Assembly (NCBI GenBank): GCA_964447495.1
Contig: CAYUTF010000015.1
Span: 10,387 to 56,065 of the forward strand
Reading direction: 5' to 3'
DNA from: an uncultured archaeon
Lineage (GTDB): Archaea > Asgardarchaeota > Lokiarchaeia > Sigyniarchaeales > SOKP01
DNA: 45,679 bases
The position numbers were made by a program, and so were the translations under genes. Positions within the stretch are counted from its first letter, which is position 1; every line of letters begins with the position of its first letter. Positions 1,507-40,873 of the stretch are shown here, one piece after another. The notes under the pieces are model-generated. The model was not told the DNA's origin. It saw nothing but the letters and a program-made list of their open reading frames with translations, and searched no databases.

Positions 1507-2988
1507 TTGTTTAGGATGAATGTGAATAAAGTAGAAGAAAATATTTATGAAATACCCCCCTCGACGTTAATGGCTCGTGTTGAGGGAACAATAAAGAAGT
1601 TCCAGATGAAAGTTCCAGTTCATATCTATGCTAACGAATATATCTTAGAAAAAATTAAATTAGATAGAACTCTTGATCAAATTAGCAATGTAGCATGCTT
1701 AGGAGGTATTCAGAAACATGCTATAGCCCTTTCAGATGCACATCAAGGATATGGTTTTTGTATCGGAGGTGTAGCAGGAACAGATGCTAATGATGGGATG
1801 ATCTCTCCTGGTGGCGTGGGATATGACATTAATTGCGGAGTTAGATTACTAAGAACAAATCTGTTTTTAAATGATATAAATAAAGAGCTTCCATCTCTAC
1901 TTGATAAAATTTTTAAAAATATTCCTTCAGGTTTAGGTTCAAAAGGAAAATTAAATATAAGTTACAAGGATTTAGATGAGGTTCTAGATACAGGTTTAAA
2001 TTGGGCTCTAAAACAGGGTTATGCATTGGAACAAGATCTACATCATTGCGAGGAAAATGGTTTTCTAAAAGATGCTAATTCAGAATTAATATCAGAAAAA
2101 GCAAAGCAAAGAGCTATTAAGCAACTTGGATCTTTAGGTAGTGGAAATCATTTCCTTGAAATCCAAAGAGTAGATGAAATATATGATAGAGCCATTGCTA
2201 AAAAATTAGGAATTATAAAAAAGGATCAAATTACAGTAATGGTTCATACGGGCAGTCGAGCTTTAGGTCATCAAGTATGTTCAGATTCACTTAGAAATGT
2301 TGAAAAAGCGATGAAAAAATATAATATTCAAGTTCCTGATAGGGAATTGGCTTGCGTACCAGCAAACACCAAGGAAGCAAAAGATTATTTAAGCCAAATG
2401 GCATGTGCAGCAAATTTTGGTTTTTGTAATCGCCAATTAATAACTCATTGGTTAAGAGAATCATTTCAGGAACAATATAACAAAAATACTGATGATATGG
2501 ATTTTCATCTAATATATGGCGTTTGTCATAATATATTAAAAATTGAAGAACATGAAGTTAATGGCAAAAAAATGCTCTTAAATATTCATAGAAAAGGTGC
2601 AACTAGAGCGTTTCCTCCTGGACATTCTGATATACCTCAAGATTATAAAAGTATTGGACAACCAGTATTAATACCTGGAACTATGGGATCAGCATCATAT
2701 TTGTGTGTAGGAAAACCAAAGGCAATGGATCTTACATTTGGTTCTACTGCACATGGTTCGGGGAGGTTAATGTCAAGATCTAAAGCAACCAAACAATATT
2801 GGGGATCTAAAATTAAAGAAGATTTGGGGAATAAAGGTATATTAGTAAAAGCCGCTTCAATGAAAGTTATAGCAGAAGAAGCTCCGGGAGCTTATAAAGA
2901 TATAGATCAAGTTGTTCAAGTTAGTCATGATTTAAATATTATTGAAAAAGTGGTAAGATTAGTCCCTGTGGGAGTTGTCAAAGGCTAA
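1507..2988 (+). CDS. rtcB: tRNA-splicing ligase RtcB (ATG at 1516 is an alternative start)
   Basis: Motifs DAHQGYGFCIGG, GVGYDINCG, GSLGSGNHFLE, HTGSR, HN, HRKGAT, GSTAHGSGR, EEAPGAYK. Confidence 0.97.
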   Translation: MFRMNVNKVEENIYEIPPSTLMARVEGTIKKFQMKVPVHIYANEYILEKIKLDRTLDQISNVACLGGIQKHAIALSDAHQGYGFCIGGVAGTDANDGMISPGGVGYDINCGVRLLRTNLFLNDINKELPSLLDKIFKNIPSGLGSKGKLNISYKDLDEVLDTGLNWALKQGYALEQDLHHCEENGFLKDANSELISEKAKQRAIKQLGSLGSGNHFLEIQRVDEIYDRAIAKKLGIIKKDQITVMVHTGSRALGHQVCSDSLRNVEKAMKKYNIQVPDRELACVPANTKEAKDYLSQMACAANFGFCNRQLITHWLRESFQEQYNKNTDDMDFHLIYGVCHNILKIEEHEVNGKKMLLNIHRKGATRAFPPGHSDIPQDYKSIGQPVLIPGTMGSASYLCVGKPKAMDLTFGSTAHGSGRLMSRSKATKQYWGSKIKEDLGNKGILVKAASMKVIAEEAPGAYKDIDQVVQVSHDLNIIEKVVRLVPVGVVKG

Positions 2989-3002
2989 GCGAAAATATTT
3001 AA

Positions 3003-3473
3003 CTATATGTCAAAGACAATATCAATAGTGACTTTTTCTTTTTTTTCCTCAATATTCATAAATGAATAAGTTATAGCTTTGACTTCAATTCCTATTTCAT
3101 GAACATTTTTATTAAATTTCTCTCCTTTGGCAAGCGCTTTTAACTGAAAATACCCTTTCTTCATAATAATTGATTGAACTTCTATATTGCTAAATACTAA
3201 TTCATCAACATCAAAAATATATAGAAATTCAGTCAAAAAATCTATACATAGTGCGTATTTATCTTCAGATTTAATATTAATTTCTCTTTCAATTTTATGG
3301 TCGATTTTTTCTAAACTGGGAGAAATTGTAGCCATAAGACTTAATGCTACTTGAGAAAATGCTTCTTCTATTGTTCTGCCCCAACCTCTTACTTTAACAT
3401 CAGCAGTATGGTCGATAAATTTGTATCCTGCTTCTCTCATTTTATTTAATTTATTCTTAAAAATATTTTTCAT
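3003..3473 (-). CDS. Archease (RtcB cofactor); likely start ATG at 3440
   Basis: DHTAD motif, EVKAITY, terminal FDI; convergent with rtcB. Confidence 0.95.
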   Translation of the reverse strand: MKNIFKNKLNKMREAGYKFIDHTADVKVRGWGRTIEEAFSQVALSLMATISPSLEKIDHKIEREINIKSEDKYALCIDFLTEFLYIFDVDELVFSNIEVQSIIMKKGYFQLKALAKGEKFNKNVHEIGIEVKAITYSFMNIEEKKEKVTIDIVFDI

Positions 3474-3559
3474 TTAGATGTATTTTTTTATTTTAAATTT
3501 ATTGCTCAAAATTATTTTTCTTAGGACTTTATATTTTTAAGTGAAAAGAAATCTATTGT

Positions 3560-4063
3560 ATGCTTTATACAATTCTAGATGATTTAATATTTTATCAGAT
3601 TTTAAGAGTTGTAATTAAATTTACTAATTTTGAAATAAAGCTATATGAATATTTCCTTCAAAAAACGGGGGTTTATCCTCAAAATATCATCACTATTGAT
3701 AATTTTGTTTTTTTCTTTGTAAATAACGAGGATTATTTCAAGGCAAAAGATCATATAAAGACAATTAGGAAAGAATTAATTAAAAAAGCACTAATAATTC
3801 GAGCAGAAAATACTCTTATTAATTTATTATACAGTTTATTTCCAGATCTATATATCCACGATATTAAAATTGAATGGAATTTTTATTCTGGAAAACGAGA
3901 AATTTCGATAAATTTTCTTTCATTTAAGGAAAGAGGGATCGCGATTGGACGGAATGGCGATTACATCAAAACAGTAAATGACCTTTTCAATAAATATATT
4001 CTATTTCAGAATGATGGTAAGCCAATAACAATAAAATGTATATCTATTAATAACGATCTATAA
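3560..4063 (+). CDS. Archaeal NusA-like KH-domain protein (divergent paralogue)
   Basis: 'IKFTNFEIKLYEYF..KTGV' N-terminus and 'RGIAIGRNGDYIK' second-KH GxxG motif. The first KH lacks GxxG. Start uncertain. Confidence 0.65.
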   Translation: MLYTILDDLIFYQILRVVIKFTNFEIKLYEYFLQKTGVYPQNIITIDNFVFFFVNNEDYFKAKDHIKTIRKELIKKALIIRAENTLINLLYSLFPDLYIHDIKIEWNFYSGKREISINFLSFKERGIAIGRNGDYIKTVNDLFNKYILFQNDGKPITIKCISINNDL

Positions 4064-4837
4064 TTACCAAGGAACATCTTTTAATCCTACTACATAAGCA
4101 ACCGTATTTGCAATGATGCTTACTGAAGGAGTTAATATGAGAAGAAAAATAACCATAAAAATATCTGGAGCCAAATAGAGATTTGGGAAAAAAAAGCTAG
4201 GTATTGAAGCAAATACAATAGCAAATCCCGCAAAATCTAGTTGGTCTATAACCCAAAAGGGGGCCCCACTTGCGATATTAACCCTTCTCTTTAGAAAAGA
4301 ACCTATTAAATCACCGATCCCAGCTCCATAGGAGCATAGAATAATTCTTATTAATATAATTAAAAACCCAATAGGAAAAGTTCCGCCTATAAAATAATAT
4401 TGATAATAGAAGATGTTGTTATAAAGCTTGTATATTCCAAGAGGAATTCCGATATCTGGAATAACTCTAATAATATCCCATAAAACCAAAAATAATAAAA
4501 ATATACCGAATGAAATTGGAATTCCAATAAAGAGAGGGCCTTTGATTAATCCATTCCAAGTTTTATGGTCTCCTAATATTCTTCTTCCATCCTTCCAATA
4601 CTTACCTCCATCAACAGGTTTTCCTTTACCAACGATTACCATACCTGCATTTGAAATGTATGCCGGAACGATAAAAAATAAACTAAAAATCAATAGAGCA
4701 ATCCAGTCAGCCCAAGAATAAAGTAATGAAATGATTATGAAATTTAACAACAGTAAACAAGTAAAGGACAGAGCTAAATACTTTGCTATTTTTGTATTTC
4801 GTTGCTTTTTATAGTCTTGATTACTTATTGAATCCAT
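4064..4837 (-). CDS. carS: CDP-archaeol synthase (CDP-2,3-bis-O-geranylgeranyl-sn-glycerol synthase)
   Basis: PAYISN, PVDGG..WKDGRRILGDHKTW, GDLIGSFLKRR, DQLDF, terminal LKDVPW. Confidence 0.93.
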   Translation of the reverse strand: MDSISNQDYKKQRNTKIAKYLALSFTCLLLLNFIIISLLYSWADWIALLIFSLFFIVPAYISNAGMVIVGKGKPVDGGKYWKDGRRILGDHKTWNGLIKGPLFIGIPISFGIFLLFLVLWDIIRVIPDIGIPLGIYKLYNNIFYYQYYFIGGTFPIGFLIILIRIILCSYGAGIGDLIGSFLKRRVNIASGAPFWVIDQLDFAGFAIVFASIPSFFFPNLYLAPDIFMVIFLLILTPSVSIIANTVAYVVGLKDVPW

Positions 4838-5085
4838 TTTTCATTCAATCAATTTAGTCTCAAATTAGATATTCTAATACTTAATGAAAATTAAATGTTG
4901 TTATAGAAAAGAGAATATAATAGAGTATTAATAATATTGCTCGGCAAATAAAAATCTTTTAAAACTCCGACATTAATATTATCAAATATTGATGTGGTTG
5001 TAGTTAATTATATTTTTAATTTATATTAATAATTTAACATCTAATCAATAATTTTGAGATTAATAATTAATCTTATATAGTAAGT

Positions 5086-5118
5086 TTGCATTCGAAATAT
5101 TAGTTGTTCGCATGGAAA
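5086..5118 (+). promoter_or_regulatory. Candidate mini-ORB (Orc1/Cdc6-binding) motifs upstream of cdc6
   Basis: TTGCATTCGAAAT (5086-5098) fits YTNCANNNGAAA. TTCGCATGGAAA (5107-5118) resembles the TTCCAGTGGAAA ORB core. Both sit in a ~300-bp very AT-rich intergenic region. Confidence 0.35.
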
Positions 5119-5138
5119 AAAACGTATGGTGACATTGA

Positions 5139-6461
5139 GTGTTGACTAACTCTAACAAGGATAACGATCTTTCTTTTAACATTGATAGATTTTATAAAGA
5201 TTATTTAAAGGGACCAACAATTTTCAAGAAACGCGAAGCTCTTGAACCATCATTTATACCAAATGAATTACCACATAGAGATTATGAAATAGAAAAAATT
5301 GCAGCAATCACAGCATGTGCATTAAAAGGAGACGTACCCCCAAATTTATTATGTTATGGAATGACGGGTACTGGAAAAACTGCTACAGTTAGATATATAA
5401 GTCAAAAATTAGCACAACATTGTAAAGGAAATACTCCATGGTGGATATATATTAATTGTAACGTTGTATCAACACCTTATCGTATTTTAGCTCATATATA
5501 TAATACGATTAGTAATAAAGAAAAAATACCTCCCACAGGATTGCCAAAGGATATCATTTTCAAAAAATTGCTAGGATTGTTAGATATTCGAGTAAAAGAT
5601 TGCATATGTTTTCTAGTATTAGATGAAATAGATATTTTAATAGGAAAAAAGGGAGGAAATGAAATTTTATATGACTTAACGCGACTTAATGAAAATTTAG
5701 ATTTTTGTCGCACTAGCCTGATAGGAATATCAAATAAACTGAAATTCATAGATTATTTAGATTCCAGAGTCACTTCAAGTTTAGGCGAAGAAGAACCTAT
5801 TGTATTTCATCCCTATAATGCAAACCAATTAACGGATATTCTTAGACAACGGGCAAATATAGCATTTCCTGATGGCGTAATTGAAGATGGTGTCATAAAA
5901 TTGTGCGCAGGATTAGCTGCTAAAGAACATGGGGATGCTCGAAAAGCCTTACAGCTTTTACGTAAAGCGGGAGAAATAGCAGCGAGAAAACATAATAAAA
6001 CTATTTCAGAAGCTCATGTCCAGAAAGCTCAAAAAGATATTGATAAAGATCATATTGTTGAATATATTTTATCGATGCCTCTTCAATCTCAATTGACAAT
6101 TACAGCGATCTTCCTTCTACATAAATATAATAAAGATCATATAATAACTTCTGGTGACATATATGAAGTACATACAGATCTTTCAAACAAGATTCCAGGG
6201 GTAAAACAGCTAACTAAAAGAAGGATCAGTGATTATATCAATGAGTTAGCATTAGCGGGATTAATTTCAGCCATAACTAAATCCTTGGGACACTACGGCA
6301 GAACAAAAATTATTAACTTAGATATAGATATTAATTTAGTGGAACGTGTATTAAATCAAATTCCTAAAATTAAAATGGCTAATCTCCTTAATTTTAAGCC
6401 AACATTATTACAAACAGATAAAGTAAGAGTAAAGAATAATGTTTTCAAAAGATTGCTTTAA
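5139..6461 (+). CDS. cdc6: Orc1/Cdc6 replication initiator
   Basis: LPHR, Walker A GMTGTGKT, Walker B VLDEID, FHPYNANQL, HGDARKAL, C-terminal wHTH with GHYGRT. Confidence 0.96.
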   Translation: MLTNSNKDNDLSFNIDRFYKDYLKGPTIFKKREALEPSFIPNELPHRDYEIEKIAAITACALKGDVPPNLLCYGMTGTGKTATVRYISQKLAQHCKGNTPWWIYINCNVVSTPYRILAHIYNTISNKEKIPPTGLPKDIIFKKLLGLLDIRVKDCICFLVLDEIDILIGKKGGNEILYDLTRLNENLDFCRTSLIGISNKLKFIDYLDSRVTSSLGEEEPIVFHPYNANQLTDILRQRANIAFPDGVIEDGVIKLCAGLAAKEHGDARKALQLLRKAGEIAARKHNKTISEAHVQKAQKDIDKDHIVEYILSMPLQSQLTITAIFLLHKYNKDHIITSGDIYEVHTDLSNKIPGVKQLTKRRISDYINELALAGLISAITKSLGHYGRTKIINLDIDINLVERVLNQIPKIKMANLLNFKPTLLQTDKVRVKNNVFKRLL

Positions 6462-7141
6462 GAAGAGAATTCCCATTCATTAATTTGGTTTATAATCTTT
6501 TCAAGAAAATAAATAGCTAAATTCTCGTCTTCTTTTTTTAGAAGCAGAAATAATTTAATTAAATGCTTACAAAATGTTTTAGTTTTAGCTCGTCTTGTTT
6601 CAAAATCATGACAATTATGTCTTATGTATTTTTCTTTTATACTTATTTTAACTATATAATTCTTTTCTTTGGATCCTTTAATTTTAGCTTCAATTATCCC
6701 CGCATTCTTATCATGTGTTATAATATTGATTGCATCGTCGGAAACAGAAACTGCTCTATTTAATGCTCCATTATCAATTAGTTTCTTCAGGAAGCTATTG
6801 AATTTATTTCCATTATTCATTTCAATTTCTTTTATAACATTATTTCGTTTTTTTTGAGATTTCATATTCTCCTCAATTTCCAACTGTCGTCCTTTTTGCC
6901 ATATTTTGAATTTTCGATATAATTTATCTGATAGTCTAAAATTTGAATTTTCATCTTCGATTAATAATCCACTTTTTAGAGCGTTATTTAGAAATGAAAT
7001 TGCTTCTTTTGGTAGATAGATAAAAAACTCGAAAATAATTTTATATAATAGATCATCATAAGATATGTAGGGTAGATCAATTATCTTCCAAATATACAAT
7101 AACATTTCATCAGGATTGTCTCGAGGAATAGTTAATTTCAT
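6458..7141 (-). CDS. SWIM-type zinc finger protein with N-terminal wHTH-like region
   Basis: 'KGSKEKNYIVKI...HNCHDF....FCKHL' fits the SWIM pattern (first Cys replaced by His). Lies 29 bp downstream of DP1 on the same strand. Confidence 0.65.
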   Translation of the reverse strand: MKLTIPRDNPDEMLLYIWKIIDLPYISYDDLLYKIIFEFFIYLPKEAISFLNNALKSGLLIEDENSNFRLSDKLYRKFKIWQKGRQLEIEENMKSQKKRNNVIKEIEMNNGNKFNSFLKKLIDNGALNRAVSVSDDAINIITHDKNAGIIEAKIKGSKEKNYIVKISIKEKYIRHNCHDFETRRAKTKTFCKHLIKLFLLLKKEDENLAIYFLEKIINQINEWEFSS

Positions 7142-7170
7142 TGAAATCGTCCTATACTTTTTTTAATAAT

Positions 7171-8928
7171 TTAATTATATAATTTTTGTATATCTAATGG
7201 GAAAAAAGTCAGGCTATCTAATTCTATTATTGGTACAATTCCAGGAGTAGGTGTGATTCCAAAACTCTTCATAAAGTCTGTTTGAGCTTGAAAGCATCCA
7301 GAATTGATTAATGAGACATGCCGATATCGATCAAAACCATTAATATGAATGTGTCCTGTATGAAAAATATCTGGTATCTTATCTATAACCAACCAATCTT
7401 TATCTAATGGTGCAATTTGAGTTTTTTCTCCAAAGATTGGTGCTAAATGTCTGGATATGAGAAACTCTTTCATTACTTCAGTAGGTTTATTAATATTAAA
7501 TTCATGAATCAACATGATCATATCATGAATACTCTCACCATGATATATCAAAGTATTTACTTCATGGGTTTGAATATAAGAGGGGTTGCCTAAGCAAACA
7601 ACTCCAAGATCAAATAATGCTTCACAATATTTCTTGGGAACTGCAGGACGAGGAATTGCATTTCTGACAGGTTCATGATTTCCTGCAGTATAGAATACCT
7701 TTATATGTTCGGGAATTTGAGCGATAAATTCGGTAGCTTTATCATATTGTTTATAAATGTCAGTTATATCAAGATCATTTTCTTGATTTGGATATACCCC
7801 AATCCCATCAATTAAATCTCCATTTATTACAAGATATTTTATTTTACTTGCCCGTTCTCTATAGTTTGCATTACCCGCTTTTCCATTTAAAAAAGCAATA
7901 AACTTCTTAAATAATTTTTCTTCAAACTCTTTACTTCCGATATGAGTATCAGAGATTAAAGCTATAGATAGAGGAAGATTCGCTGTATTTGGTTGATAAT
8001 CAGTAGGAATGTCAATTTTTGTGATATAATCTGCAAATATTATCCCGCTATTTCGGTTATCTCCGGGATTATAAGTTCCTTGAACATACATCATCTGATC
8101 ATATACAATGTGATTAAAAAGTTTATTATTTTCTTGATTTTCGCTGTCTTTGCGAATTAAAACATTAATAGAACCTGTTAAGTCTTCAATTTCAAAAAAA
8201 TAATTTTCATTTTTAGTTTGGCGAAAATTTTTCACTAGACCTATAGTAGATACCTCAGAGCTACTGGAAAGCCTAAGTATATTGTTAATATTTGTTGCTG
8301 AAAGCACATCAGATCTTTTTCTCATTAATTTATTTAATTTTGTAAATTTATCTAATGTTAAATTATAAAAATCGTTATAATCTCCATTGGTATATAACTT
8401 ACCAGTAGGATCTTTTAATATTTTATAATCGAAATCATAATCTTTAGCTATTGGTCGAAATAAAGAATTTGACTTAGTAGTTTCATAAGTACGGACAGAA
8501 TTCATGGCTTTAGGGGATACTTTTTCATTTATTGAACTAGTTTGAGGTAATTTTGAAGTGGGTAATGGCTTTGCACTTGCTTTTACTGATTTAAACAAAA
8601 TGGAGGGTTCCTCTTTATTAGTTTGTTGACATTTATTTTTTTCTTTTACTTCCAAATCAGGCTCGTTTTTCATGAGTATATCAGAATGTATAATATTTCT
8701 TTCCATTGTTTTAACGATTTCTTGATTAGAAAGTTTCTTCAGAATATCAGGGGTTAAATGGCTTTGAAACTGAGGTATAAAACTAGTCTCTTTAATGATT
8801 AATTCTAAATTCTGATGAGGATTTTCCATATTTAAAATCATTTCTAAAACAAAAGGGGTAATATTTATTCCAGAATTTACCAATTTTTTTAAAATGATTT
8901 GTTTCTGGTTAAGTTTATCGTCATTCAA
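7171..8928 (-). CDS. polB: DNA polymerase D small subunit DP1 (3'-5' exonuclease)
   Basis: OB fold (EIEDLTGSI) plus calcineurin-like motifs SDTHIGS, GDLIDGIGVYPNQ, GNHE, HG, RHLAP, HTGHIH, FQAQTDF. Confidence 0.96.
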   Translation of the reverse strand: MNDDKLNQKQIILKKLVNSGINITPFVLEMILNMENPHQNLELIIKETSFIPQFQSHLTPDILKKLSNQEIVKTMERNIIHSDILMKNEPDLEVKEKNKCQQTNKEEPSILFKSVKASAKPLPTSKLPQTSSINEKVSPKAMNSVRTYETTKSNSLFRPIAKDYDFDYKILKDPTGKLYTNGDYNDFYNLTLDKFTKLNKLMRKRSDVLSATNINNILRLSSSSEVSTIGLVKNFRQTKNENYFFEIEDLTGSINVLIRKDSENQENNKLFNHIVYDQMMYVQGTYNPGDNRNSGIIFADYITKIDIPTDYQPNTANLPLSIALISDTHIGSKEFEEKLFKKFIAFLNGKAGNANYRERASKIKYLVINGDLIDGIGVYPNQENDLDITDIYKQYDKATEFIAQIPEHIKVFYTAGNHEPVRNAIPRPAVPKKYCEALFDLGVVCLGNPSYIQTHEVNTLIYHGESIHDMIMLIHEFNINKPTEVMKEFLISRHLAPIFGEKTQIAPLDKDWLVIDKIPDIFHTGHIHINGFDRYRHVSLINSGCFQAQTDFMKSFGITPTPGIVPIIELDSLTFFPLDIQKLYN

Positions 8929-9197
8929 GGTTAATCATTTGTTTTAGAATTATGATATTAAATATACTTCACTATTAAATTATTTATTATTAAAGAAAAA
9001 ACATATTTTCTTTTTATACAAATAGACTAATAAAAATAACTGATTATAATGAAAAATTAGTGAACTCTCATTATTGAAATAAAAGTAGAGAATTAGCCTA
9101 TTAATAAATTACTTTAATTTGCTTGAAAAAAAATGAATAATATAACTTTAGTACTTGGTTTAATTTAAAAGTTCTTATAGCAAGGGTTTGTTCAAAA

Positions 9198-12100
9198 ATG
9201 GTTGAATTAAGTAGAGAAATGGAGCAGTATTTCAAAGAAATCCATGACCGCGTTGATCAATGTTATGCCATTGCGGAAATCGCGCGGAAAAAAGGTATAG
9301 ATCCAGAAAGGTTTGTCGAGTCTCCTCAAGCAAAAGATCTGGCAGGGAGAGTTGAAAAATTAGTAGGTCCTGAGGGTGTTGCTCAAATTATACGTGATTT
9401 AAAGAGAGAGGGAAAAAGTGATGATGAGATTGTATTTCAAGTAGTAACTGATATTTTAGACCAAAAGATTGGACAAATTAAATCATTAGATGATCGCGTC
9501 GAAAGAGCAATAAGAGTAGGTTTAGCTATTAAAACGATGGGAGTAGTAAGTGCTCCGTTAGAAGGTATTTCTAAAATATTAATAAGAAAAGATCAACAAA
9601 ATAGAAGATATTTATCTTTATATTTTGCAGGTCCAATAAGAGCTGCAGGAGGGACTACAGCTGCCTTATGTGTATTAATAGCTGATTATGTACGAAAAAA
9701 GTCAAACCTTCCTAAATACGAGGCAACAGAAGCCGAGATTGGTAGATATGTCGAGGAAGTTAAAATGTATGATAGAAGGGTCCATCTACAATATCCTTCA
9801 TCAAATGCTGAAATTAGATTTGCTGTTGAAAATCTTCCTGTTGAAATCAATGGTGATTCTACTGAAGATGAAGAAGTATCAGCTTTTAGAAATTTACCAA
9901 GAATAGAAACCAATAAAATTCGGGGAGGAGCATGCTTAGTTCTCAATGATGGAATTATATCTAAATCTCCAAAGCTTCTTAAAATTACTAAAACTATGAA
10001 GTTAGATGGTTGGGATTGGTTAGCGGATTTAAAAAAAATTGCACAAACAGAGCAAGAAATTGAAAAAAAAAAGGAACCAAAAAAAACCCAAAATCAAAAA
10101 ATTACACCAAATTTCAAATATATATCAGATATAATTGCCGGCAGACCTGTTTTTAGTCATCCATCTAAAATTGGTGGTCATCGTATTCGTTATGGAAGAT
10201 CTAGAAACACAGGTCTAGCAGCTGCAGGAATACATCCAGCTACTATGGCTATTTTAGATGATTTCATAGCAATTGGGACCCAATTAAGGATTGAGAGACC
10301 CGGCAAAAGCACAAGTATATGCCCTGTAGATTCAATTGAGCCTCCCTTAGTAAAATTGAAGAATGGAAATGTTGAAAAAGTAAAAACTAGAAAATTAGCA
10401 AAGAAGTATTTCCCAGAGATAAAAGAAATCCTTTTCTTAGGTGATATCTTGTTTGGATTTGGAGAATTTACTGAAAATAATCATAAATTAATTCCCTCTG
10501 GTTATGTGGAAGAATGGTGGGCTTTGGATTTAGAAAAAACGACTAAAAATCAAAAGAATTTAGATTCTGAAGTAGGAGGTTTTATTGAAGAACCTTTCAT
10601 AAATATTCCTAACGCAAAGCAAGCAATTGATTTATCTACAAAATTCAATATTCCCCTACATCCGAAATATACTTTTTTTTGGGATAATTTCGAATTTCAA
10701 GAATTAGAAAAGTTGAGGGGTGCATTAATTTCATGTTTCAATTCATCTCAAGGAAAGATTATTCTGGATATTGATGATGAAATTAAATTATTACTCGAGA
10801 AAGCATTTATTCCTCATCGAATCATTAATGGAAAAATATTATTCAATAAAAATATTAATTATACCTTAATTCGAATTTTTAACCTTCAAAATGGTGATAA
10901 AGTACACTTGGATAATTTTACTGATCCTTTTACATATTTTTACAATTACTCTTCAATAATCATAAAAAGCAAATATCCCTATTTCATGGGGACCAGAATG
11001 GGAAGACCAGAGAAATCCGAAAGAAAAAGCATGAAAGGTATTCACACTTTATTTCCTTTAAGTGATAAAGTTGGAAATTCAAGATTAGTTGAAAAAGCTA
11101 TAGAATTAGAAAAGATCAAAATTGATGTGTGTCGGAAATTATGTCCCAAATGTAATAATATCTCAATTTTTAATATATGTCCTGAATGTGGAACTCACAC
11201 TGTCTTACAAAAAATATGTTTGAATTGTAAGAAAAATTATCCTAAAAACGAAGACATATGCCCGCAATGTGGAGAACTTTTGAAGTTTTCTTCAGAAGCT
11301 GCATTTAATATGAAAAATCATATTAATTTAGTATTAAAAAAGAAGGGAATGAATTTACCTAAAAAATTCAAGGGAATAATAGGCTTAACTAATCAATTTA
11401 AGATTCCAGAACCGATTGAAAAAGGAATTTTAAGAGCAAAAAATGAATTATTAGTATATAAAACAGCAGAAATTAGATATGATGCCACAGATATTCCGTT
11501 AACCCATTTTAAACCGAATGAAATCAAGACAGAAGTTAATGTATTAAAGAAACTAGGTTATAACACAGATTATAAAGGAAAAGAATTAAAAGATGATAAT
11601 CAAATATGTGAGTTAAAAGTACAAGACATTCTTCTTTCAGAAGATTGTGCAGAATATTTCGTAAAAGTAGCTAATTTTCTTGACGATGAACTTGAATTTA
11701 TATATAATTTGGAGAGATTTTATAATATTTCGGAAAAAGAGGATTTAATAGGTCATTTAACAGTTGGTTTAGCTCCTCATACAAGTGCGGGAATAATTGG
11801 CAGAATCATAGGGTTTTCTCCCGCAAGATCTATTTATGCTCACCCCTTTTGGCATGCTGCAAAGCGTAGAAATTGTGATGGGGATGAAGATGGAATTATG
11901 ATGCTTTTAGATCCTTTATTAAACTTCTCAAGATATTATCTACCAAGTAAAATTGGTGGGCGGATGGATGCAACTTTAGTTATTTCAACAAAATTAGATC
12001 CAAATGAAATAGATGTAGAAGCTCATAATATAGATACACTCTATAAATACCCTATAGAATTCTTTGAAGCAACACAAAAATATTGTAATCCCTCAGAAAT

Positions 12101-12632
12101 TGAAGATTCTATGGATTTAGTAAAAAATCATCTTAAAAAAGGAAATAAATATGAAAATATTGGATACAATATACCTACTTCAGATATCAATAATGGTCCC
12201 ACTACAAGTTCTTATAAAACTTATGAAAATATGGACGATAAAATTGATGCTCAATTACATTTAGCAAAAATTATTAAAGCTGTTGATGAGAGGAATGTGG
12301 CTGAAAAAATTTTATCTACACACTTTAATCCTGATATACTTGGGAATCTGAGGAAATTTGCAGTACAAGAATTTAGATGTGTGAATTGCAATCAAAAATA
12401 TAAAAGACCCCCGATTTCAAATGCAGGAAATTGTCCAAAGTGCGGAGGTAATATTATTTTAACAGTTAATAGAGGAGGTATAGAAAAATATATACCACGG
12501 GCGATTAATTTATGTAAAACATTCAATTTGGATTCGTATACAATTCAGCGTATGGAACTTACTCAGGAATATGTTGAGAGTTTAACAAATAATCCTAAAG
12601 TAAAACAACAAAAGTTATCAGATTTTTTCTAA
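9198..12632 (+). CDS. polC: DNA polymerase D large subunit DP2
   Basis: YFAGPIRAAGGT, RYGRSRNTG, MGRPEK, Zn fingers, catalytic AAKRRNCDGDED, C-terminal FRCVNC..CPKCGG. No intein. Confidence 0.98.
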   Translation: MVELSREMEQYFKEIHDRVDQCYAIAEIARKKGIDPERFVESPQAKDLAGRVEKLVGPEGVAQIIRDLKREGKSDDEIVFQVVTDILDQKIGQIKSLDDRVERAIRVGLAIKTMGVVSAPLEGISKILIRKDQQNRRYLSLYFAGPIRAAGGTTAALCVLIADYVRKKSNLPKYEATEAEIGRYVEEVKMYDRRVHLQYPSSNAEIRFAVENLPVEINGDSTEDEEVSAFRNLPRIETNKIRGGACLVLNDGIISKSPKLLKITKTMKLDGWDWLADLKKIAQTEQEIEKKKEPKKTQNQKITPNFKYISDIIAGRPVFSHPSKIGGHRIRYGRSRNTGLAAAGIHPATMAILDDFIAIGTQLRIERPGKSTSICPVDSIEPPLVKLKNGNVEKVKTRKLAKKYFPEIKEILFLGDILFGFGEFTENNHKLIPSGYVEEWWALDLEKTTKNQKNLDSEVGGFIEEPFINIPNAKQAIDLSTKFNIPLHPKYTFFWDNFEFQELEKLRGALISCFNSSQGKIILDIDDEIKLLLEKAFIPHRIINGKILFNKNINYTLIRIFNLQNGDKVHLDNFTDPFTYFYNYSSIIIKSKYPYFMGTRMGRPEKSERKSMKGIHTLFPLSDKVGNSRLVEKAIELEKIKIDVCRKLCPKCNNISIFNICPECGTHTVLQKICLNCKKNYPKNEDICPQCGELLKFSSEAAFNMKNHINLVLKKKGMNLPKKFKGIIGLTNQFKIPEPIEKGILRAKNELLVYKTAEIRYDATDIPLTHFKPNEIKTEVNVLKKLGYNTDYKGKELKDDNQICELKVQDILLSEDCAEYFVKVANFLDDELEFIYNLERFYNISEKEDLIGHLTVGLAPHTSAGIIGRIIGFSPARSIYAHPFWHAAKRRNCDGDEDGIMMLLDPLLNFSRYYLPSKIGGRMDATLVISTKLDPNEIDVEAHNIDTLYKYPIEFFEATQKYCNPSEIEDSMDLVKNHLKKGNKYENIGYNIPTSDINNGPTTSSYKTYENMDDKIDAQLHLAKIIKAVDERNVAEKILSTHFNPDILGNLRKFAVQEFRCVNCNQKYKRPPISNAGNCPKCGGNIILTVNRGGIEKYIPRAINLCKTFNLDSYTIQRMELTQEYVESLTNNPKVKQQKLSDFF

Positions 12633-13841
12633 GCTACTTTTTTTTGAATCTAACAACATAATCGTATTATAGCATATTTCTAAGCATGCATTTAAATTTC
12701 TTGATGAACATCTTTCTGGTTTATCTTTTGACGAATGAATATATTTAGAATCTTTTTCTGAATGAAAACATGCTACTTGTAATTTTGTATGGGTTTTTTT
12801 AGCTAATGATCGAAAAGTAAGATAATCACTTTTTGGTCTTATTATCTTGTTGTAGTTTACTAAAGGTACACCTAGATTTTTAGCACAAATATTAAAATTT
12901 TTATTTAAATCTGTATTAATAGATTTTTGTCTAATACCAACTTTATTTAAAAGCCCAATGTAGGAACCAACCATATCAATGTTGATTGCATATGACTTTT
13001 CTAAATCATATGTTCTGGACAAGTCCTCTATATGCTTTTCGCAGAATCGCTTTGAACCAATCATGCCCCATTCTTCAGCTCCAACCCATAAGAATATCAC
13101 ATCATAATTTTCTAAAGGTGTTTTATTAACAATTTTTGCAAGTTCTAACAAAATCGATACCCCACTCGCATTATCAATAGAACCACATGAATTTTTTTTA
13201 TCATATATCAGTAGGAATATAAACAAAATAATTACAAATTCGATTAATGTAGTGATATAAACTAAATTTATTAAAAGGGTATCAGAAATCTGATCAGAAA
13301 AGAAATCAGCGATTATTAATAAAGATAATGAAATCATAACTACAAAATAGGGTAATATTATTGTTCTAAAGACAAAAAACAAAACATTCTGTATCCTATA
13401 AGGAACATTTGCAGAAAAGGAGTCATAATGGGCGCTAAAAATAATAAGTGGTCTCATTTTCTCCTTATTTTTCGCTTTTATCTTTGCATAAATGTTTTTT
13501 GATTGTTCTTTTTGAATAAGAGACATTTTTCGCATTGATGCAGACATATATTTTATCGCAAAATAGGCAGCAACTAATATAATTAACCGATAAAGAATTA
13601 GATAACTAAATAGTATAACGTAGGTAATTCTCATTAAAATCCTTTTAGGCCCCGTCCATTCAAAATATTCTGTTTTGGTTTTAATATTTCCTTGGTTTAA
13701 TACGTTATCAATATATTTAACAGCTAGGCTCTCTCCTTCGGTGGTGGCAGTACGGTTAAAAGCGAGATTTTTTACGTGGTTTATTGTTGCAGAATCATCA
13801 ACCAGTTCAGATTCCAAAATATTTTTCATCACATATTGCAT
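12618..13841 (-). CDS. M28-family metallopeptidase with inserted transmembrane segments
   Basis: SAHYD, GSIDNASG, GAEEWG, NIDMVG and HSSKD metal-ligand motifs, with hydrophobic helices between them. Confidence 0.85.
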   Translation of the reverse strand: MQYVMKNILESELVDDSATINHVKNLAFNRTATTEGESLAVKYIDNVLNQGNIKTKTEYFEWTGPKRILMRITYVILFSYLILYRLIILVAAYFAIKYMSASMRKMSLIQKEQSKNIYAKIKAKNKEKMRPLIIFSAHYDSFSANVPYRIQNVLFFVFRTIILPYFVVMISLSLLIIADFFSDQISDTLLINLVYITTLIEFVIILFIFLLIYDKKNSCGSIDNASGVSILLELAKIVNKTPLENYDVIFLWVGAEEWGMIGSKRFCEKHIEDLSRTYDLEKSYAINIDMVGSYIGLLNKVGIRQKSINTDLNKNFNICAKNLGVPLVNYNKIIRPKSDYLTFRSLAKKTHTKLQVACFHSEKDSKYIHSSKDKPERCSSRNLNACLEICYNTIMLLDSKKSSLEKI

Positions 13842-14130
13842 GATTTTGTAAACTTATCTAATTTTGGTTTTTTTTTTATTTGAATTTTGTATGTATTACT
13901 TACAAAAAATATATATAATTCACTTCAATTAAGAATTGAACCCATTTATAGAGTTGTTAACTGTACTTCAAACAGAAGTATGAAGTTTACTGATAATTTT
14001 TAGTTAGTTATGAATTGTTTAAAAACTCAAGAAATCCCCAACAAAAAAGATTTTTAAAATTTAAGTTCCTTAATACCTTAAACTAAAATATTAATTATAG
14101 ATATCTTTTTTTTACAATAATCTATAATTT

Positions 14131-14232
14131 GCAGGAGTCGCCAAGCCTGGTCAAAGTAAAATTACAACCAACGGCGCTAGACTGAGGTTCTAGTCTCATA
14201 GGAGTACGAGGGTTCGAATCCCTCCTCCTGCA
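14131..14232 (+). tRNA. tRNA-Leu(GAG) with a 17-nt D-arm intron at 21/22 (14155-14171)
   Basis: Acceptor GCAGGAG/CTCCTGC, anticodon arm CTAGA-CTGAGGT-TCTAG, long variable arm, GGTTCGAATCC. Removing the BHB intron restores GCCAAGCCTGGTCAACGGCG. Confidence 0.92.
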
Positions 14233-14352
14233 TTTCCATTAATAGGGAATTGAGCTCTAGAGAATAAGTAATTAACATAAAATACCAACTCTGATAACCC
14301 TATGATTCTATATCATGTCTCCTCTTATTATAATATAAAGTGAATTATAACT

Positions 14353-14545
14353 TTAGATACAATAATTGCATACGGTTCGTAAAATGAATATTTTCTCCTT
14401 CTTATCGTCGAATCGAATGTGAAGCATAAATTTTGCGGTCTCGATTCTCACATTACAAAGATCGTATTAGATAAGGTTGACGGGATTTTTGTAAATCTTT
14501 TTCGTTAGATAATTTATGCCTTTTTGATCTAAAAATATTTTTATT
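14353..14545 (-). pseudogene. Possible degraded small Zn-binding protein gene
   Basis: The minus frame reads ...INYLTKKIYKNPVNLI*YDLCNVRIETAKFMLHIRFDDKKEKIFILRTVCNYCI*, with an in-frame stop and a residual (Y)xxC...CxxC. Confidence 0.25.
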
Positions 14546-14613
14546 ATGACAGTATTAATTCATTAATATAGGTATTATTTCAATATAAAATATTAACAGG
14601 TAGTTGTGGATTC

Positions 14614-15627
14614 TTGTCTGTTGACACAAAAAAGTTACAAGCTTTACTTCAATGGTATAAGCAGAGTATAGGTGATAATTTAGTTGCCGCTCTTGTAGTA
14701 AACCGGGAAGGCCTAGTCATAGATGCACTAGTTAGTTCTCCAGAAAAAACGGTAGATGAAGAAATTATTGGAGGTGTTAGCGCTCTTGTAGAACCTGTAT
14801 TAACTAGAATCACAAAAGAATTTAGTTCGGGTTCTTTTGGAACGGGCACATTCGATACAGAAGAATATCGGTTCATATTTTGTGAAGCTGGTCCTGATGC
14901 TGTTTTTGTTACTGTTTTAACAGCAATTGCAGGAGTGGATCCTGTTTTTCCATATGCTTATTTGACAGCTGAGAAAATTGCGAGGATTTTTGATGGTAGA
15001 ACCGTTAGTCCAGTTATCCCAAAGCTTATTTCTACTAATAATGTTGCAAATATTGAAAGAAAAATAGAAAAATTACAAAAAATAAAAATCAAATCGGGAG
15101 AATATGCTTTTAAACTAATCTTGGGAGGAGATGGTGCTGTTGGAAAGACAAGCCTCGTTCATAGGTTTGTCGAAAATACTTTTGCAAAAGATTATAAATC
15201 AACTATCGGTACATCGATCATGAAAAAAGAATGTACTTTTAAAGAGTTAGAGAGCACGGTTCGATTTGTGATCTGGGATTTAGCAGGCCAGAGTCAGTTT
15301 AAACGAGTCAGAAAATCATATTTAGCGAATGCTGAAGCGGGGATCTTAGTGTATGATGTAACTAATCGTAAATCTTATGAAAATATTGAAAATTGGTATA
15401 ACGAAATTAATGAAGCTTCATCAAATATCTCTCTTATTTTAGTTGGAAATAAAATTGATTTGAAAGATAATCGCGAAGTTAAAACAACTGAGGGTAATGA
15501 ATTGGCAGAGAAATTGGGATTGTCTTATGTAGAGACATCAGCAAAAACCGGTGAAAATATTGATGATGCCTTCAAAATGCTTGCATTATTAATAGTTAAA
15601 AAATATGTTATTACTGAGGATATATAA
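14614..15627 (+). CDS. Roadblock/LC7 domain fused to a Rab/Ras-like small GTPase
   Basis: N-terminal 'LVAALVVNREGLVI...IGGVSAL...FIFCEAGPDAVFVTV' roadblock fold; G1 GDGAVGKT, G3 WDLAGQ, G4 NKID, G5 TSAK. TTG start. Confidence 0.9.
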   Translation: MSVDTKKLQALLQWYKQSIGDNLVAALVVNREGLVIDALVSSPEKTVDEEIIGGVSALVEPVLTRITKEFSSGSFGTGTFDTEEYRFIFCEAGPDAVFVTVLTAIAGVDPVFPYAYLTAEKIARIFDGRTVSPVIPKLISTNNVANIERKIEKLQKIKIKSGEYAFKLILGGDGAVGKTSLVHRFVENTFAKDYKSTIGTSIMKKECTFKELESTVRFVIWDLAGQSQFKRVRKSYLANAEAGILVYDVTNRKSYENIENWYNEINEASSNISLILVGNKIDLKDNREVKTTEGNELAEKLGLSYVETSAKTGENIDDAFKMLALLIVKKYVITEDI

Positions 15628-15631
15628 ATAG

Positions 15632-15777
15632 AGCCCCTGGTGGGATTTTCGCATTCTGGGTAAATCCCTGAACGTATTGAACCCACGACCGATTGATAAC
15701 TCGTTATTGCTTTAACAATAATTACGAATCAATCGCTTTTGGCGTCTAAAAGTACCATACCACTAAGCCACAGAGGC
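15632..15777 (-). tRNA. tRNA-Thr(CGT) with three introns: 22/23 (15738-15756), 37/38 (15698-15722), 59/60 (15646-15675)
   Basis: Acceptor GCCTCTG/CAGGGGC with U discriminator. Excising three BHB-bounded introns (19, 25 and 30 nt) from 146 nt gives a 72-nt cloverleaf with ATTGA-TTCGTAA-TCAAT and GTGGG-TTCAATT-CCCAC. Confidence 0.9.
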
Positions 15778-15828
15778 AATAAGTTGATTTAATTATTATA
15801 AATATTAAAAAATTATAAAATTTTCCCA

Positions 15829-16839
15829 ATGACTTCTGAAAATAATATTCACAATCTAGGAGAGATTCAATTAATTAGTATAATTGAAGATTTAGTTTTA
15901 AAGGAAGCAGGAGAGAAGTTGATTAAGGATGATGCTTTTTTTTTTGAGATGCCCGAATCCAATAAAATATTAATTCTAAATACTGATATGTTTATTTCCA
16001 CTACTGATGCGCCCATTGAAATGAATTATTTTCAAATGGGACGTAAATCAGTTCTTATGAATATAAGCGATTTAGTTGTTAAGGGTGTAAGACCTCAAGG
16101 TATAATTATTTCGTTAGGATTACCTCCGGATTTAAGTGTATCCCAATTCAAAGATTTGATTAAAGGTATAATTGATTATTCAAAAAAATGGAATTTGAAG
16201 TATCTTGGAGGTGACCTTAATAAATCTAAAGAAGTAATTATAAATCCTACGGTTTTTGGGTTTAAGAATCCTGAAACTATCATACATCGAAACGGGATTA
16301 AAAAAGGAGATATTCTATTAATAAACAATAAATTTGGATTAACTAGTGTAGGGTTCGATATCCTTCTCAATCGAGGGGGGGATGTAAAAGATTTTCCTAA
16401 ATATAATCGATCATTAACAAGTGTTTTAGAACCGAGTTTCTTAGGAACTGAAGCATATTTCTTGTCGGATAGGGGTTTAGCTAGTACAAGTATTGATTCA
16501 TCAGATGGTTTAGTAAAGTCATTAAGAGATTTAATGTTATCAAATAAAGGTTTCGGTTTTGAAATTGAATTTGATGAAGATTTAATAGATTCTGAAGCAA
16601 TTGAGTATTCACAGGATTTTAATATTTCTTTAGAAAAATTAATTCTTAATGGAGGAGAAGAGTTCATTCATTTATTTACAATTCATCCCGAAAATTATGA
16701 AGAAATAATCAAATTGGTCAACTTACATGGTGGATCATTAATTAAGGTTGGAAAGGTAATTTCTAAAGAGAAGATTTATATAATCAGGGAAGGTAAAAGA
16801 ATCGAAATAACAAATCAGGGTTATGAGCATTTTAAATAA
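15829..16839 (+). CDS. thiL: Thiamine-monophosphate kinase
   Basis: LGEIQLI, DDA, NTD, NISDL, GGDL, IDSSDGL, GGEEF. Confidence 0.92.
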   Translation: MTSENNIHNLGEIQLISIIEDLVLKEAGEKLIKDDAFFFEMPESNKILILNTDMFISTTDAPIEMNYFQMGRKSVLMNISDLVVKGVRPQGIIISLGLPPDLSVSQFKDLIKGIIDYSKKWNLKYLGGDLNKSKEVIINPTVFGFKNPETIIHRNGIKKGDILLINNKFGLTSVGFDILLNRGGDVKDFPKYNRSLTSVLEPSFLGTEAYFLSDRGLASTSIDSSDGLVKSLRDLMLSNKGFGFEIEFDEDLIDSEAIEYSQDFNISLEKLILNGGEEFIHLFTIHPENYEEIIKLVNLHGGSLIKVGKVISKEKIYIIREGKRIEITNQGYEHFK

Positions 16840-16954
16840 CTTAAACTTACTTTTTTGTTGATACTTTTGATTGCCATGTCAATTTATTTAAATATCACTA
16901 AAAATTTATGATATAAAGAGTATTATCAAATTATAAAAGAAGAGATGAAAAACA

Positions 16955-17518
16955 ATGAGTAAGGTTTTAATTTTATATGGAACAAGATATGGTACTACTA
17001 AAGGAATTTCAGATGAAATTGAAAAGAATATCCAAGAAAAGGGAATAGCTACCGAAAGTTACAATTTAAAAGAAACTGATCTGAAACAGATACCTCCTTT
17101 ACAACAATATGATGGTATAATTTTAGGGACGGGTATTAAAATAAAACAATGGACAAAAGCAGTTAAGAAATTTATTGACAAAAAAAAATTAGAACTAAAA
17201 GAAACGCAAGAAAAATTGGGGTTTTATGTATGCTGTGGAGAAGCCTCAAAAAAAGATAATATCAATAACGCGATAAATAACTATATTACGTCAAAACTAG
17301 GGAAAGTGGGTTTAAAGCCTGCTTTAATCGATGCTTTCGGAGGGGCTTATGATTTAACAGAAGGGTCTGCTATTACTGGCATGACAAGAAAGATTGTTAT
17401 CGGTATTATGAAAAAGGAGGAAGGGATTGAGAATCCTGAAGGAAAAATGCATGATTTTCGAGACTGGGAACAAATTAAAGAGTTTACCAATAACTTTCTT
17501 AAATTATTGGATAAATAA
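16955..17518 (+). CDS. Flavodoxin-domain protein (HemG/Flavodoxin_5-like)
   Basis: LYGTRYGTTKGI FMN loop, YDGIILG, FGGAY, DFRDWEQI. Confidence 0.85.
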   Translation: MSKVLILYGTRYGTTKGISDEIEKNIQEKGIATESYNLKETDLKQIPPLQQYDGIILGTGIKIKQWTKAVKKFIDKKKLELKETQEKLGFYVCCGEASKKDNINNAINNYITSKLGKVGLKPALIDAFGGAYDLTEGSAITGMTRKIVIGIMKKEEGIENPEGKMHDFRDWEQIKEFTNNFLKLLDK

Positions 17519-17770
17519 TTGACTGAATTGATACACTAAAAGAATTAATCATTTTCTTATTTCTTGACCAAGGCTTTTATCGAAATATTGAATTCAAAGA
17601 AGTCATAAATCTTTAATTTAATCATAAGAAATTAAAATAAATTTTTATATAAATTGAGGATTTCAAGTTCATAATATTAGAGATAAACTTTAAGTTAAAT
17701 TATTTATTATCAATTCTATTGATCAAGTTAACTAAAGAGCAAAAGTTATAACCTCTCTGAATGATCATTT

Positions 17771-17869
17771 GGGCCATTAGCGCAGGCAGGTAGCGCGGCA
17801 GGCTTTTAACCTGAAACTTGCTTATCAACGCAAGCAGGATGGTCGTGGGTTCAATTCCCACATGGCCCG
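17771..17869 (+). tRNA. tRNA-Lys(TTT) with a 25-nt intron at 44/45 (17816-17840)
   Basis: Acceptor GGGCCAT/ATGGCCC with G discriminator; D stem GCGC/GCGC; anticodon loop CTTTTAA; BHB CCTG-AAA-CTTGC/GCAAG-CAGG-ATG. Mature length 74 nt. Confidence 0.92.
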
Positions 17870-17969: not shown

Positions 17970-19004
17970 TTGCGTATCAAAATGGAAAAAACTACAGATA
18001 AATTACCATCTGATGAACCAGAACAATTATTAGTAAAATCACAAGATAATACTGACCCAAATTATGGATTAGAGCCGGAAAAAAGAAGTATTGATTCTTT
18101 ATTACAATATGGTGTTATAAATCTCGATAAACCCAGAGGGCCAACTAGTCATGAAGTTGTTTCATGGATTAGAAAAATTTTACAGATTCCTTTAGCGGGA
18201 CATGGAGGTACATTAGATCCGAAGGTAACTGGGGTTTTACCATGTGCTTTAGGAAAGGCAACAAGAGTACTATCAGCATTACTAACAGCTGGTAAAGAAT
18301 ATATTGGAATTATGTATCTACATAATCCCGAAAATATAAAAAAATTAGAAAAAGTATTTCAACTTTTTACGGGAGAAATATATCAAACACCACCTTTAAA
18401 ATCATCTGTAGTGAGAAAATTAAGAATTCGCGAGATCTATTATAATAAACTTCTTGAAGTGGAGAATAATCGTATTTTATTTTGTGTAGGTTGTGAAGCA
18501 GGAACATATATAAGAAAATTATGTTTTGATATTGGTGAAGCTTTATGCTCAGGAGCACATATGCTGGAATTGAGAAGAACAAGGGTTGGAAAATTTAGGG
18601 AAGATGATAGTCTAGTCACTCTTCAAAATGTTAAAGATGCGTTTAGGATATATATTGAAGAGGATGATGAATCATATCTAAGAAAAATAATATACCCTAT
18701 GGAAACGATGGTTGCTCATATCCCTAAAATATATCTTAGAGATACTGCTGTAGATGCTATCTGCCACGGTGCAGACTTAGCTGCTGCAGGAGTTTGTTTA
18801 GTTGATGCGAGAATAGATATTGCTTCGAAGGTTGCTTTAATGACTCTTAAGAAGGAACTTGTAGGGTTTGGTATAGCAAAAATGCATGCAATGAAGATTT
18901 ATAAAGCTAAATCAGGTATTATGGTAAGTACGAATAAAGTGTTCATGGAAAGAGGGACATATCCAAGATGGACTGAAACAAAAAGTAAAGATAAAGTAGG
19001 ATAA
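17970..19004 (+). CDS. cbf5: H/ACA pseudouridine synthase Cbf5 (likely start ATG at 17982)
   Basis: LDKPRGPTSHEV, GHGGTLDPKVTG, CEAGTYIR, ELRRTR, C-terminal PUA domain. Confidence 0.96.
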   Translation: MRIKMEKTTDKLPSDEPEQLLVKSQDNTDPNYGLEPEKRSIDSLLQYGVINLDKPRGPTSHEVVSWIRKILQIPLAGHGGTLDPKVTGVLPCALGKATRVLSALLTAGKEYIGIMYLHNPENIKKLEKVFQLFTGEIYQTPPLKSSVVRKLRIREIYYNKLLEVENNRILFCVGCEAGTYIRKLCFDIGEALCSGAHMLELRRTRVGKFREDDSLVTLQNVKDAFRIYIEEDDESYLRKIIYPMETMVAHIPKIYLRDTAVDAICHGADLAAAGVCLVDARIDIASKVALMTLKKELVGFGIAKMHAMKIYKAKSGIMVSTNKVFMERGTYPRWTETKSKDKVG

Positions 19005-40801: not shown

Positions 40802-40873
40802 AGCCAGAGGGGAGATTCGAACTCCCGAATAATAACTCTGCAGGCTATCGCCCAACCTCTAGGCGACTCTGGC
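40802..40873 (-). tRNA. tRNA-Cys(GCA), intronless
   Basis: GCCAGAG/CTCTGGC acceptor, U discriminator, ATAGC-CTGCAGA-GTTAT anticodon arm, GGGAG-TTCGAAT-CTCCC. Confidence 0.93.

Follow-up and report, generated by a model that had tools for sequence, protein, structure and literature searches.

The stretch of DNA analysed here, 45,679 nucleotides in length (the window), is part of contig C15 of a 223-contig metagenome-assembled genome (MAG) of 3.8 Mb, G000, which is a Promethearchaeia (Lokiarchaeia) genome. Exploring its sequence, we found three interrupted tRNA genes, for tRNA-Leu(GAG), tRNA-Thr(CGU) and tRNA-Lys(UUU), and upstream of them the genes of the RNA ligase RtcB and of archease (Table 1). 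We consider it very probable that the five inserts are ordinary protein-spliced archaeal tRNA introns that are cut by an (alpha-beta)2-type splicing endonuclease (EndA) and joined by RtcB with archease, the Thr intron at 59/60 being most likely derived from gene conversion. The splicing of the five introns as well as their splice sites are deduced from sequence. In the proposed pathway the pre-tRNA would fold such that the exon-intron junctions sit in a bulge-helix-bulge (BHB) motif or a relaxed variant of it, the heterotetrameric (alpha-beta)2 EndA, whose alpha subunit carries the loop L1/CSL with its conserved lysine, would cut both junctions, and RtcB with archease would then join the exons; the pair would serve all spliced tRNAs and have no special tie to these three genes.

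Analysis of the window with Rfam/Infernal revealed three tRNAs (Leu, Lys and Cys), the alignments of which gave Leu a D-loop about 21 nt too long and Lys about 26 extra bases in the variable region, after the anticodon stem. ARAGORN called only Lys and Cys, mis-reading Lys, and its intron-option calls were rejected, as non-canonical introns were misplaced or missed. tRNA-Thr(CGU) was detected by neither program in the window; it was spotted as a GC-rich island in a gap of 200 bases between two open reading frames, where its 146 bases fold as an acceptor stem around three extra hairpins. Threading the genes through a home-made cloverleaf model in which jumps are permitted only at BHB-like junctions restored an 84-nt class II Leu, a 73-nt Lys and, upon removal of three segments, a 73-nt Thr, all forming a cloverleaf with the conserved bases and reaching base scores of 36.5-38 while the null maximum was 28. 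Compact orthologues of all three genes exist among relatives in the genus. The Thr gene was also recovered on contigs assembled from three other sequencing runs, whole in two of them (X2 and X3) and minus the last 9 bases in the third (X5), with no joint at any intron, indicating that the interrupted gene is not an assembly artefact of one sample. Among DNA contigs of four other runs we found no intron-less allele, only a variant Leu intron region in one contig. A search for RNA runs containing this stretch gave none.

To assess the BHB motifs, the exons were kept, each intron was shuffled 5000 times, and the shuffles that reached the observed combined BHB score were counted. The observed score was matched by none of the 5000 shuffles for Lys 44/45, by 4 for Leu 21/22, by 17 for Thr 37/38 and by 63 for Thr 59/60. 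The Thr D-loop insert showed no convincing BHB, its score being matched by 596 of 5000 shuffles in the best register and by 4132 of 5000 in the register based on orthologues, where only two of four central pairs form. Thus, the motif exceeds chance in four of the five introns and not in the D-loop insert, a homologue of which is nevertheless present in the closest relative, G049. For Leu, removal of the 17-nt intron reproduces the D-arm of the compact orthologues except for the last base (C here, T there); a 19-nt register with four Watson-Crick pairs was therefore dropped. An earlier note on this DNA had placed five introns at five positions; four of these (Leu 21/22, Thr 37/38, Thr 59/60 and Lys 44/45) match ours, and the fifth, given as Thr 22/23, lies within 1-4 nt of either register found here. 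The relaxed BHB features that it had described are likewise real, with one central-helix mismatch each in Leu and Thr 59/60 and with Lys 44/45 almost devoid of an outer helix.

The earlier note had also predicted that the organism encodes a broad-specificity EndA. Exactly two of eight candidates in the genome exceeded the Pfam cut-off for EndA homologues, one on contig C196 (alpha) and one on contig C3 (beta), and both proteins carry the N- and the C-terminal domain (PF02778 and PF01974). Residues 21-201 of EndA-alpha (201 aa) aligned with the Aeropyrum pernix catalytic subunit 3P1Z_B (E 8e-36), gap-free through the loop ('FFGSPLGINKPRLEYFSKP' of EndA-alpha and 'YYGQPLDVEKPRGADFEGP' of 3P1Z_B), in which 'GINKPR' faces 'DVEKPR'; the lysine of this motif is residue 44 of the A. 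pernix chain and presumably the functional residue of the loop. EndA-alpha also keeps Tyr, His and Lys ('VVYKKGPGLEHSPF...SVRKK', aligned to A. pernix and S. tokodaii/solfataricus-type chains), which we take to be the catalytic triad, and the alpha4 enzyme of M. jannaschii aligned with it only from query residue 70. In EndA-beta (205 aa), 'DSAKF' faces 'EHSVY' of M. jannaschii, placing a serine where the catalytic histidine would be. Together, the data support an (alpha-beta)2 architecture with the Crenarchaea/Asgard-type specific loop L1/CSL, in agreement with the prediction, quaternary structure and specificity being read from sequence. The enzyme resembles the crenarchaeal and Asgard (alpha-beta)2 EndA (A. 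pernix 3P1Z, 3AJV) in its two separate genes of about 200 aa, in the Tyr/His/Lys and loop lysine of alpha and in the beta subunit lacking the histidine, with no notable difference in these features of the predicted assembly. The 80 relatives of EndA-alpha that we kept, at 76-91% identity, all come from MAGs named Promethearchaeota/Promethearchaeia, other Asgard phyla or 'uncultured archaeon'.

The identities of rtcB and archease given in the earlier note were confirmed by Pfam, each family being matched at full length. Archease activates RtcB, and the two genes are often clustered. Here both families of this ligase pair are present and adjacent as expected; the genes are convergent, unlike in an operon, indicating that archease is not co-transcribed with rtcB.

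Comparison of the introns revealed that the Thr intron at 59/60 is similar to those at 59/60 in two genes of contig C12, Lys-CUU and Ser-UGA. An even closer match, with an identical 13-base core plus 9 more bases, was the 59/60 intron of Lys-UUU in G045 and G049, whose flanks have a higher identity to ours than those of any other relative. The 3' half of our Thr gene, from 'GGTCG' to 'TCCCAC', equals the 3' half of Lys-UUU of these relatives at 21 of 21 exon bases and over most of the intron. Its T-stem reads GTGGG/CCCAC; all 24 other Thr loci have GGGGG, and CCCCC where they are complete, and of 35 Lys-UUU loci, 34 have CCCAC. In G049 the Thr gene has the D-loop and 37/38 introns in common with ours and lacks the T-loop intron, and in both G045 and G049, the closest relatives, the Thr gene is without the Lys-type T-stem and without a 59/60 intron. 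The family comprises Thr-CGU, Lys-CUU and Ser-UGA here and Lys-UUU in G045 and G049, i.e. three copies in our genome and four gene types over three related genomes. Of 41 genomes of the genus, 3 contain its 20-base motif (the reversed control gave no matches in those three except one in G049), and the family pattern gave one match in the window and none in 100 shuffles. Hence the absence of an obvious common sequence, as noted earlier, holds among the five introns and does not extend beyond them, since Thr 59/60 belongs to a small family that crosses isotypes.

The T-arm identity suggests that the Thr 59/60 intron most likely arrived by gene conversion from a Lys-UUU-type gene. A Lys(UUU)-type T-arm carrying the intron would have replaced the T-arm of tRNA-Thr(CGU), 2 kb away; the near-identical T-arms of neighbouring tRNA genes would prime the conversion, which would drag flanking exon bases along (the U50-A64 pair in tRNA-Thr). 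A second case, from Lys-CUU to Ser-UGA, fits this scheme. Among the 22 distinct Ser sequences compared, the 59/60 intron of the family is found in Ser-UGA of our genome and of G045 only, and in both genomes Ser-UGA adjoins Lys-CUU, which has an intron of the same family and an identical T-stem. It is about as likely as not that T-loop (59/60) introns of this Lokiarchaeia genus spread between different tRNA genes in this way, by DNA-level gene conversion as a cassette of T-arm plus intron. The family is akin to known tRNA intron transposition families in that related introns occupy one position in tRNA genes of several isotypes of a genome, and it differs from them in its small size and in the identical flanking T-arms of two cases.

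To characterize intron content among relatives, we compared orthologous loci of the three genes across the genus. Leu-GAG is uninterrupted at 21/22 in 28 of 29 other loci, the remaining one (G047) carrying a 27-nt intron there. The 30 Lys-UUU loci, our own included, fall into 22 with a 59/60 intron, 6 compact ones and 2 (ours and G035) with the intron at 44/45. Thr-CGU orthologues exist in at least six different intron configurations: the gene is compact in G011, eight loci have just a 37/38-type intron, G049 combines the D-loop and 37/38 introns, and there are further ones with a 28/29 and a T-loop intron, with 28/29 alone, or with a variable-region intron accompanied or not by a T-loop intron. 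While exons remain 85-98% identical among orthologues, introns diverge, and intron content turns over fast within the genus. The order Leu-GTPase-Thr-...-Lys-cbf5 is kept across it. As a separate observation, most Leu-GAG orthologues of the other species searched (loci L134-L162) have the anticodon loop CCGAGGC, which puts a C at position 33, where U is nearly universal; our gene has CUGAGGU.

To determine how common such genes are, the threader was run over both strands of 484 GC-rich intergenic regions of the genome, covering 962 of 968 region-strands. It permits one intron per arm and requires U8, GG in the D-loop, U33 and the G53-C61 pair; matches with a base score of at least 36 were kept, the maximum among 183 reversed control region-strands being 28, and two tRNA arrays, on contigs C80 and C26, lie outside the counts. 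The census yielded 31 tRNA genes (one of them, Ile-UAU at C19:36852-37060, borderline), 23 of which are interrupted. They contain 37 introns, located at 59/60 (ten), 58/59 (one), 21/22 (eight), 37/38 (four), 38/39 (two), 43/44-45/46 (four) and, for the remainder, at scattered positions. Inspection by eye added six interrupted genes (Pro-CGG, Ala-UGC, Ala-CGC, Ser-CGA, Ser-UGA and a probable Tyr) and eight compact ones seen only by Infernal or ARAGORN, giving a total of about 29 of about 45 tRNA genes interrupted and at least 45 introns, about one per gene, with hot spots at 59/60 and 21/22. The interrupted genes are spread over more than 20 contigs. Infernal on the whole genome gave 63 tRNA-like matches, many of them 93-105 bases long; Thr-CGU was not among them. 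An ARAGORN 'Thr-cgt' call at C24:34759-34859 was read by eye as tRNA-Ser(CGA). Ranking by a large BHB bonus was dropped, as it produced spurious 'tRNAs' with five to seven introns at base scores of 24-30, and five clusters at base scores of 32-35 (C12:20992, C17:13120, C67, C77 and C80:4804) were set aside as compact or unresolved genes with spurious extra introns.

Several other loci were noted in the course of the census. The probable tRNA-Tyr(GUA), recognized by eye, spans 164 bases (G000:C67:10738-10901) and pairs C1 with G72; its T-loop is unusual (ATCAAAG), it contains two or more long inserts, and its CCA end is encoded in the genome. A tRNA-like gene of 150 bases (G000:C77:4830-4979) has two T-arm-like hairpins and two mutually exclusive long helices. 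In the array on C26 (G000:C26:33639-34079), five tRNA genes (for Phe and four Leu isoacceptors) follow each other head to tail at distances of 5-7 bases and have no long inserts, in contrast to the scattered, interrupted native genes. The 15-kb contig C80 carries about 20 compact, intron-free tRNA genes on one strand (G000:C80:1-14000), including four Ser, two Arg, two Glu, Ala, Leu, Lys, Gln, Asp, Ile-UAU, Thr and Met; between them lie genes for an HNH endonuclease, ARPP, a SLOG (YAcAr) domain, an RyR domain and many proteins without a family. C80 has the look of a viral or mobile element that brings its own set of tRNAs, or of a mis-binned contig.

Some of the data weigh against our explanation. 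The putative donor, Lys-UUU of this genome, has no 59/60 intron, so that an extra loss is needed; the homology flanks of the conversion tract are short (15 and 6 bases); the all-against-all intron score is marginal, the best pair scoring 24 while the 95th percentile of 200 shuffles was 22 and their maximum 27; and the unconvincing BHB of the Thr D-loop insert means either that its boundaries are wrong or that its recognition is not modelled here. The Thr 59/60 intron might instead have come alone, by reverse splicing and reverse transcription or by some other transposition, the change from G50-C64 to U50-A64 being an unrelated compensatory one. Families of introns at the same position in different tRNAs are known in Thermoproteales, with the mechanism not established, according to a 2014 review (PMC4090602), which calls the transposition mechanism of tRNA introns unknown; likewise, a preprint on Asgard archaea (10.64898/2026.10.13.758758) leaves the mechanism of intron arrival open. 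Moreover, the BHB constraint would suffice to explain the 'GAAAA' at which all 59/60 introns end on their 3' side. Yet arrival of the intron alone leaves the double T-stem change as a coincidence that makes the Thr T-arm equal to that of Lys-UUU throughout the flanking exon bases, a change seen in no other Thr orthologue, and Ser-UGA and Lys-CUU are again close neighbours with identical T-arms. We regard this alternative as unlikely and favour gene conversion, because the flanking T-arms are identical in donor and recipient in two cases, once with a co-converted stem pair.

Two further alternatives were considered, that tRNA genes and rtcB-archease form a local 'splicing island', co-regulated or co-inherited, and that the interrupted genes are pseudogenes or assembly artefacts while the real tRNAs are encoded elsewhere, e.g. 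in the compact C80 array. All parts of such an island lie within 16 kb, and cbf5 follows tRNA-Lys. However, the convergent rtcB and archease are separated from the tRNA genes by genes of unrelated function, for replication (Cdc6/Orc1 and both PolD subunits) and for lipids (CDP-archaeol synthase), the EndA genes are located on other contigs, and 23 of the 31 census genes are interrupted and widely scattered, making an island highly improbable. The 'candidate system' with rtcB-archease that the earlier note had proposed is hence not upheld; its own suspicion that the proximity may be coincidental was borne out, since interrupted genes on so many contigs indicate that the nearness of rtcB is a coincidence. 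For pseudogenes or artefacts speaks that C80 includes a Lys-UUU and a Leu among its compact tRNAs. Against them, the exons restore perfect cloverleaves with conserved identity bases and are conserved in orthologues while the introns diverge, the contigs of the three other runs carry the Thr gene unchanged or nearly so, C80 has the appearance of a foreign element, and no other Thr-CGU or Leu-GAG gene was present in the ARAGORN list or the census (the Rfam list gives no anticodons). We give this last alternative still less credence than the island, and retain functional, protein-spliced introns as the explanation.

The surroundings of the genes have a G+C content of about 30% over the window. 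The replication cluster, at 5139-12632, encodes Cdc6/Orc1, a 227-aa protein without a family, and the small (DP1-like) and large (DP2) subunits of PolD. Between tRNA-Leu and tRNA-Thr lies a gene (14614-15627, + strand) whose 337-aa product, a typical Asgard signature protein, ends in a small-GTPase domain (Ras/Roc) and has 165 N-terminal residues without a family; this Ras-family GTPase gene counted towards the Asgard lineage of the genome. The RNA-processing gene cbf5 (17970-19004), the one mRNA gene that we examined for a BHB intron, has none, since it is intact with all domains present. Of rRNA, the MAG holds only a 300-base piece of the large subunit (G000:C218:1200-1498); the small subunit was not found in it.

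Table 1. Coordinates of tRNA genes, introns and tRNA ligase genes in the window.
Feature	Position	Strand	Characteristics
rtcB, 3'-phosphate RNA ligase joining tRNA exons	1507..2988	+	Pfam RtcB PF01139, E 2.8e-168, profile 1-426 of 426
archease, RtcB activator	3003..3473	-	Pfam Archease PF01951, E 1.5e-38
tRNA-Leu(GAG), class II, one intron	14131..14232	+	Rfam tRNA 44.3 bits; threader base score 37.5
Leu intron 21/22, D-loop/D-stem junction, 17 nt	14155..14171	+	Relaxed BHB: 3/4 central pairs, outer helix 2 bp, inner helix 4 bp
tRNA-Thr(CGU), three introns	15632..15777	-	GC-rich island; threader base score 36.5, null maximum 28
Thr T-loop intron 59/60, 30 nt	15646..15675	-	BHB with one central mismatch; 'GGATTTACCC..AATGCGAA' intron family
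Thr intron 37/38, canonical, 25 nt	15698..15722	-	Full hBHBh': 4/4 central pairs, outer helix 7 bp, inner helix 8 bp
Thr D-loop insert, 17-19 nt	15739..15760	-	BHB-best register 15744-15760 (17 nt); ortholog/Infernal register 15739-15757 (19 nt)
tRNA-Lys(UUU), one intron	17771..17869	+	Rfam tRNA 57 bits; threader base score 38
Lys variable-region intron 44/45, 25 nt	17816..17840	+	HBh'-like: four Watson-Crick central pairs, inner helix 5 bp, almost no outer helix
tRNA-Cys(GCA), uninterrupted, internal contrast within the window	40802..40873	-	ARAGORN, Rfam, threader

Non-canonical and multiple BHB introns of archaeal tRNAs were reportedly described by Marck and Grosjean in 2003 and by Sugahara in 2008, as cited by the 2026 preprint. 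For Asgard archaea, one study (Kaneta 2018, PMC5829648) predicted tRNAs for four genomes including a Lokiarchaeota MAG, stated that these archaea harbour an (alpha-beta)2 EndA with the L1 insert and took incomplete tRNA sets to point to undetected disrupted genes, and in another (Valentin-Alvarado 2024, PMC11291895) introns, often non-canonical and multiple, were reported in 92-95% of the tRNA genes of three genomes. The preprint (10.64898/2026.10.13.758758) reports 0.91 inserts per tRNA gene for Asgard families other than its focal ones, a pair of EndA paralogues in 44 of the 60 genomes, fast intron turnover in other Asgard classes, and D-arm inserts that are missed by tools and have the weakest BHBs, T-arm inserts having the best; in its main text 'Lokiarch' and 'Prometh' have no occurrence and no Lokiarchaeia family is named. 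The earlier note had stated that prior literature on this intron spectrum in the lineage would remove its novelty; such literature exists, since these sources have both the intron spectrum and the enzyme in print for Asgard archaea. The finding leaves the origin of eukaryotic TSEN/RTCB splicing, on which the earlier note had suggested that it bears, as it was. With Thermoproteales and Asgard introns ours have in common the length of 17-30 nt, the presence of several per gene, the location in D-arm, variable region and T-loop in addition to 37/38, and D-arm inserts that escape detection by tools and in many cases have no canonical BHB, the best motifs being those of T-arm inserts. The load of about one intron per gene fits the figure that the preprint gives for non-focal families and is below that of Atabeyarchaeia and Freyarchaeia.

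The finding therefore adds one more genus to a documented picture of heavily interrupted Asgard tRNA genes together with a two-subunit endonuclease of the broad-specificity type. Standard tools miss interrupted genes, Thr-CGU being invisible to both ARAGORN and Rfam and T-loop introns hiding Lys and Ser genes, and the tRNA sets of Lokiarchaeia MAGs are therefore under-called. Within this one genus, orthologous loci vary in intron position from species to species, and the two cases of an intron family shared by neighbouring genes with identical T-arms offer a testable DNA-level route for intron gain; if this route is true, the conversion tract in tRNA-Thr(CGU) would be a tangible trace of the way in which introns come into archaeal tRNA genes.

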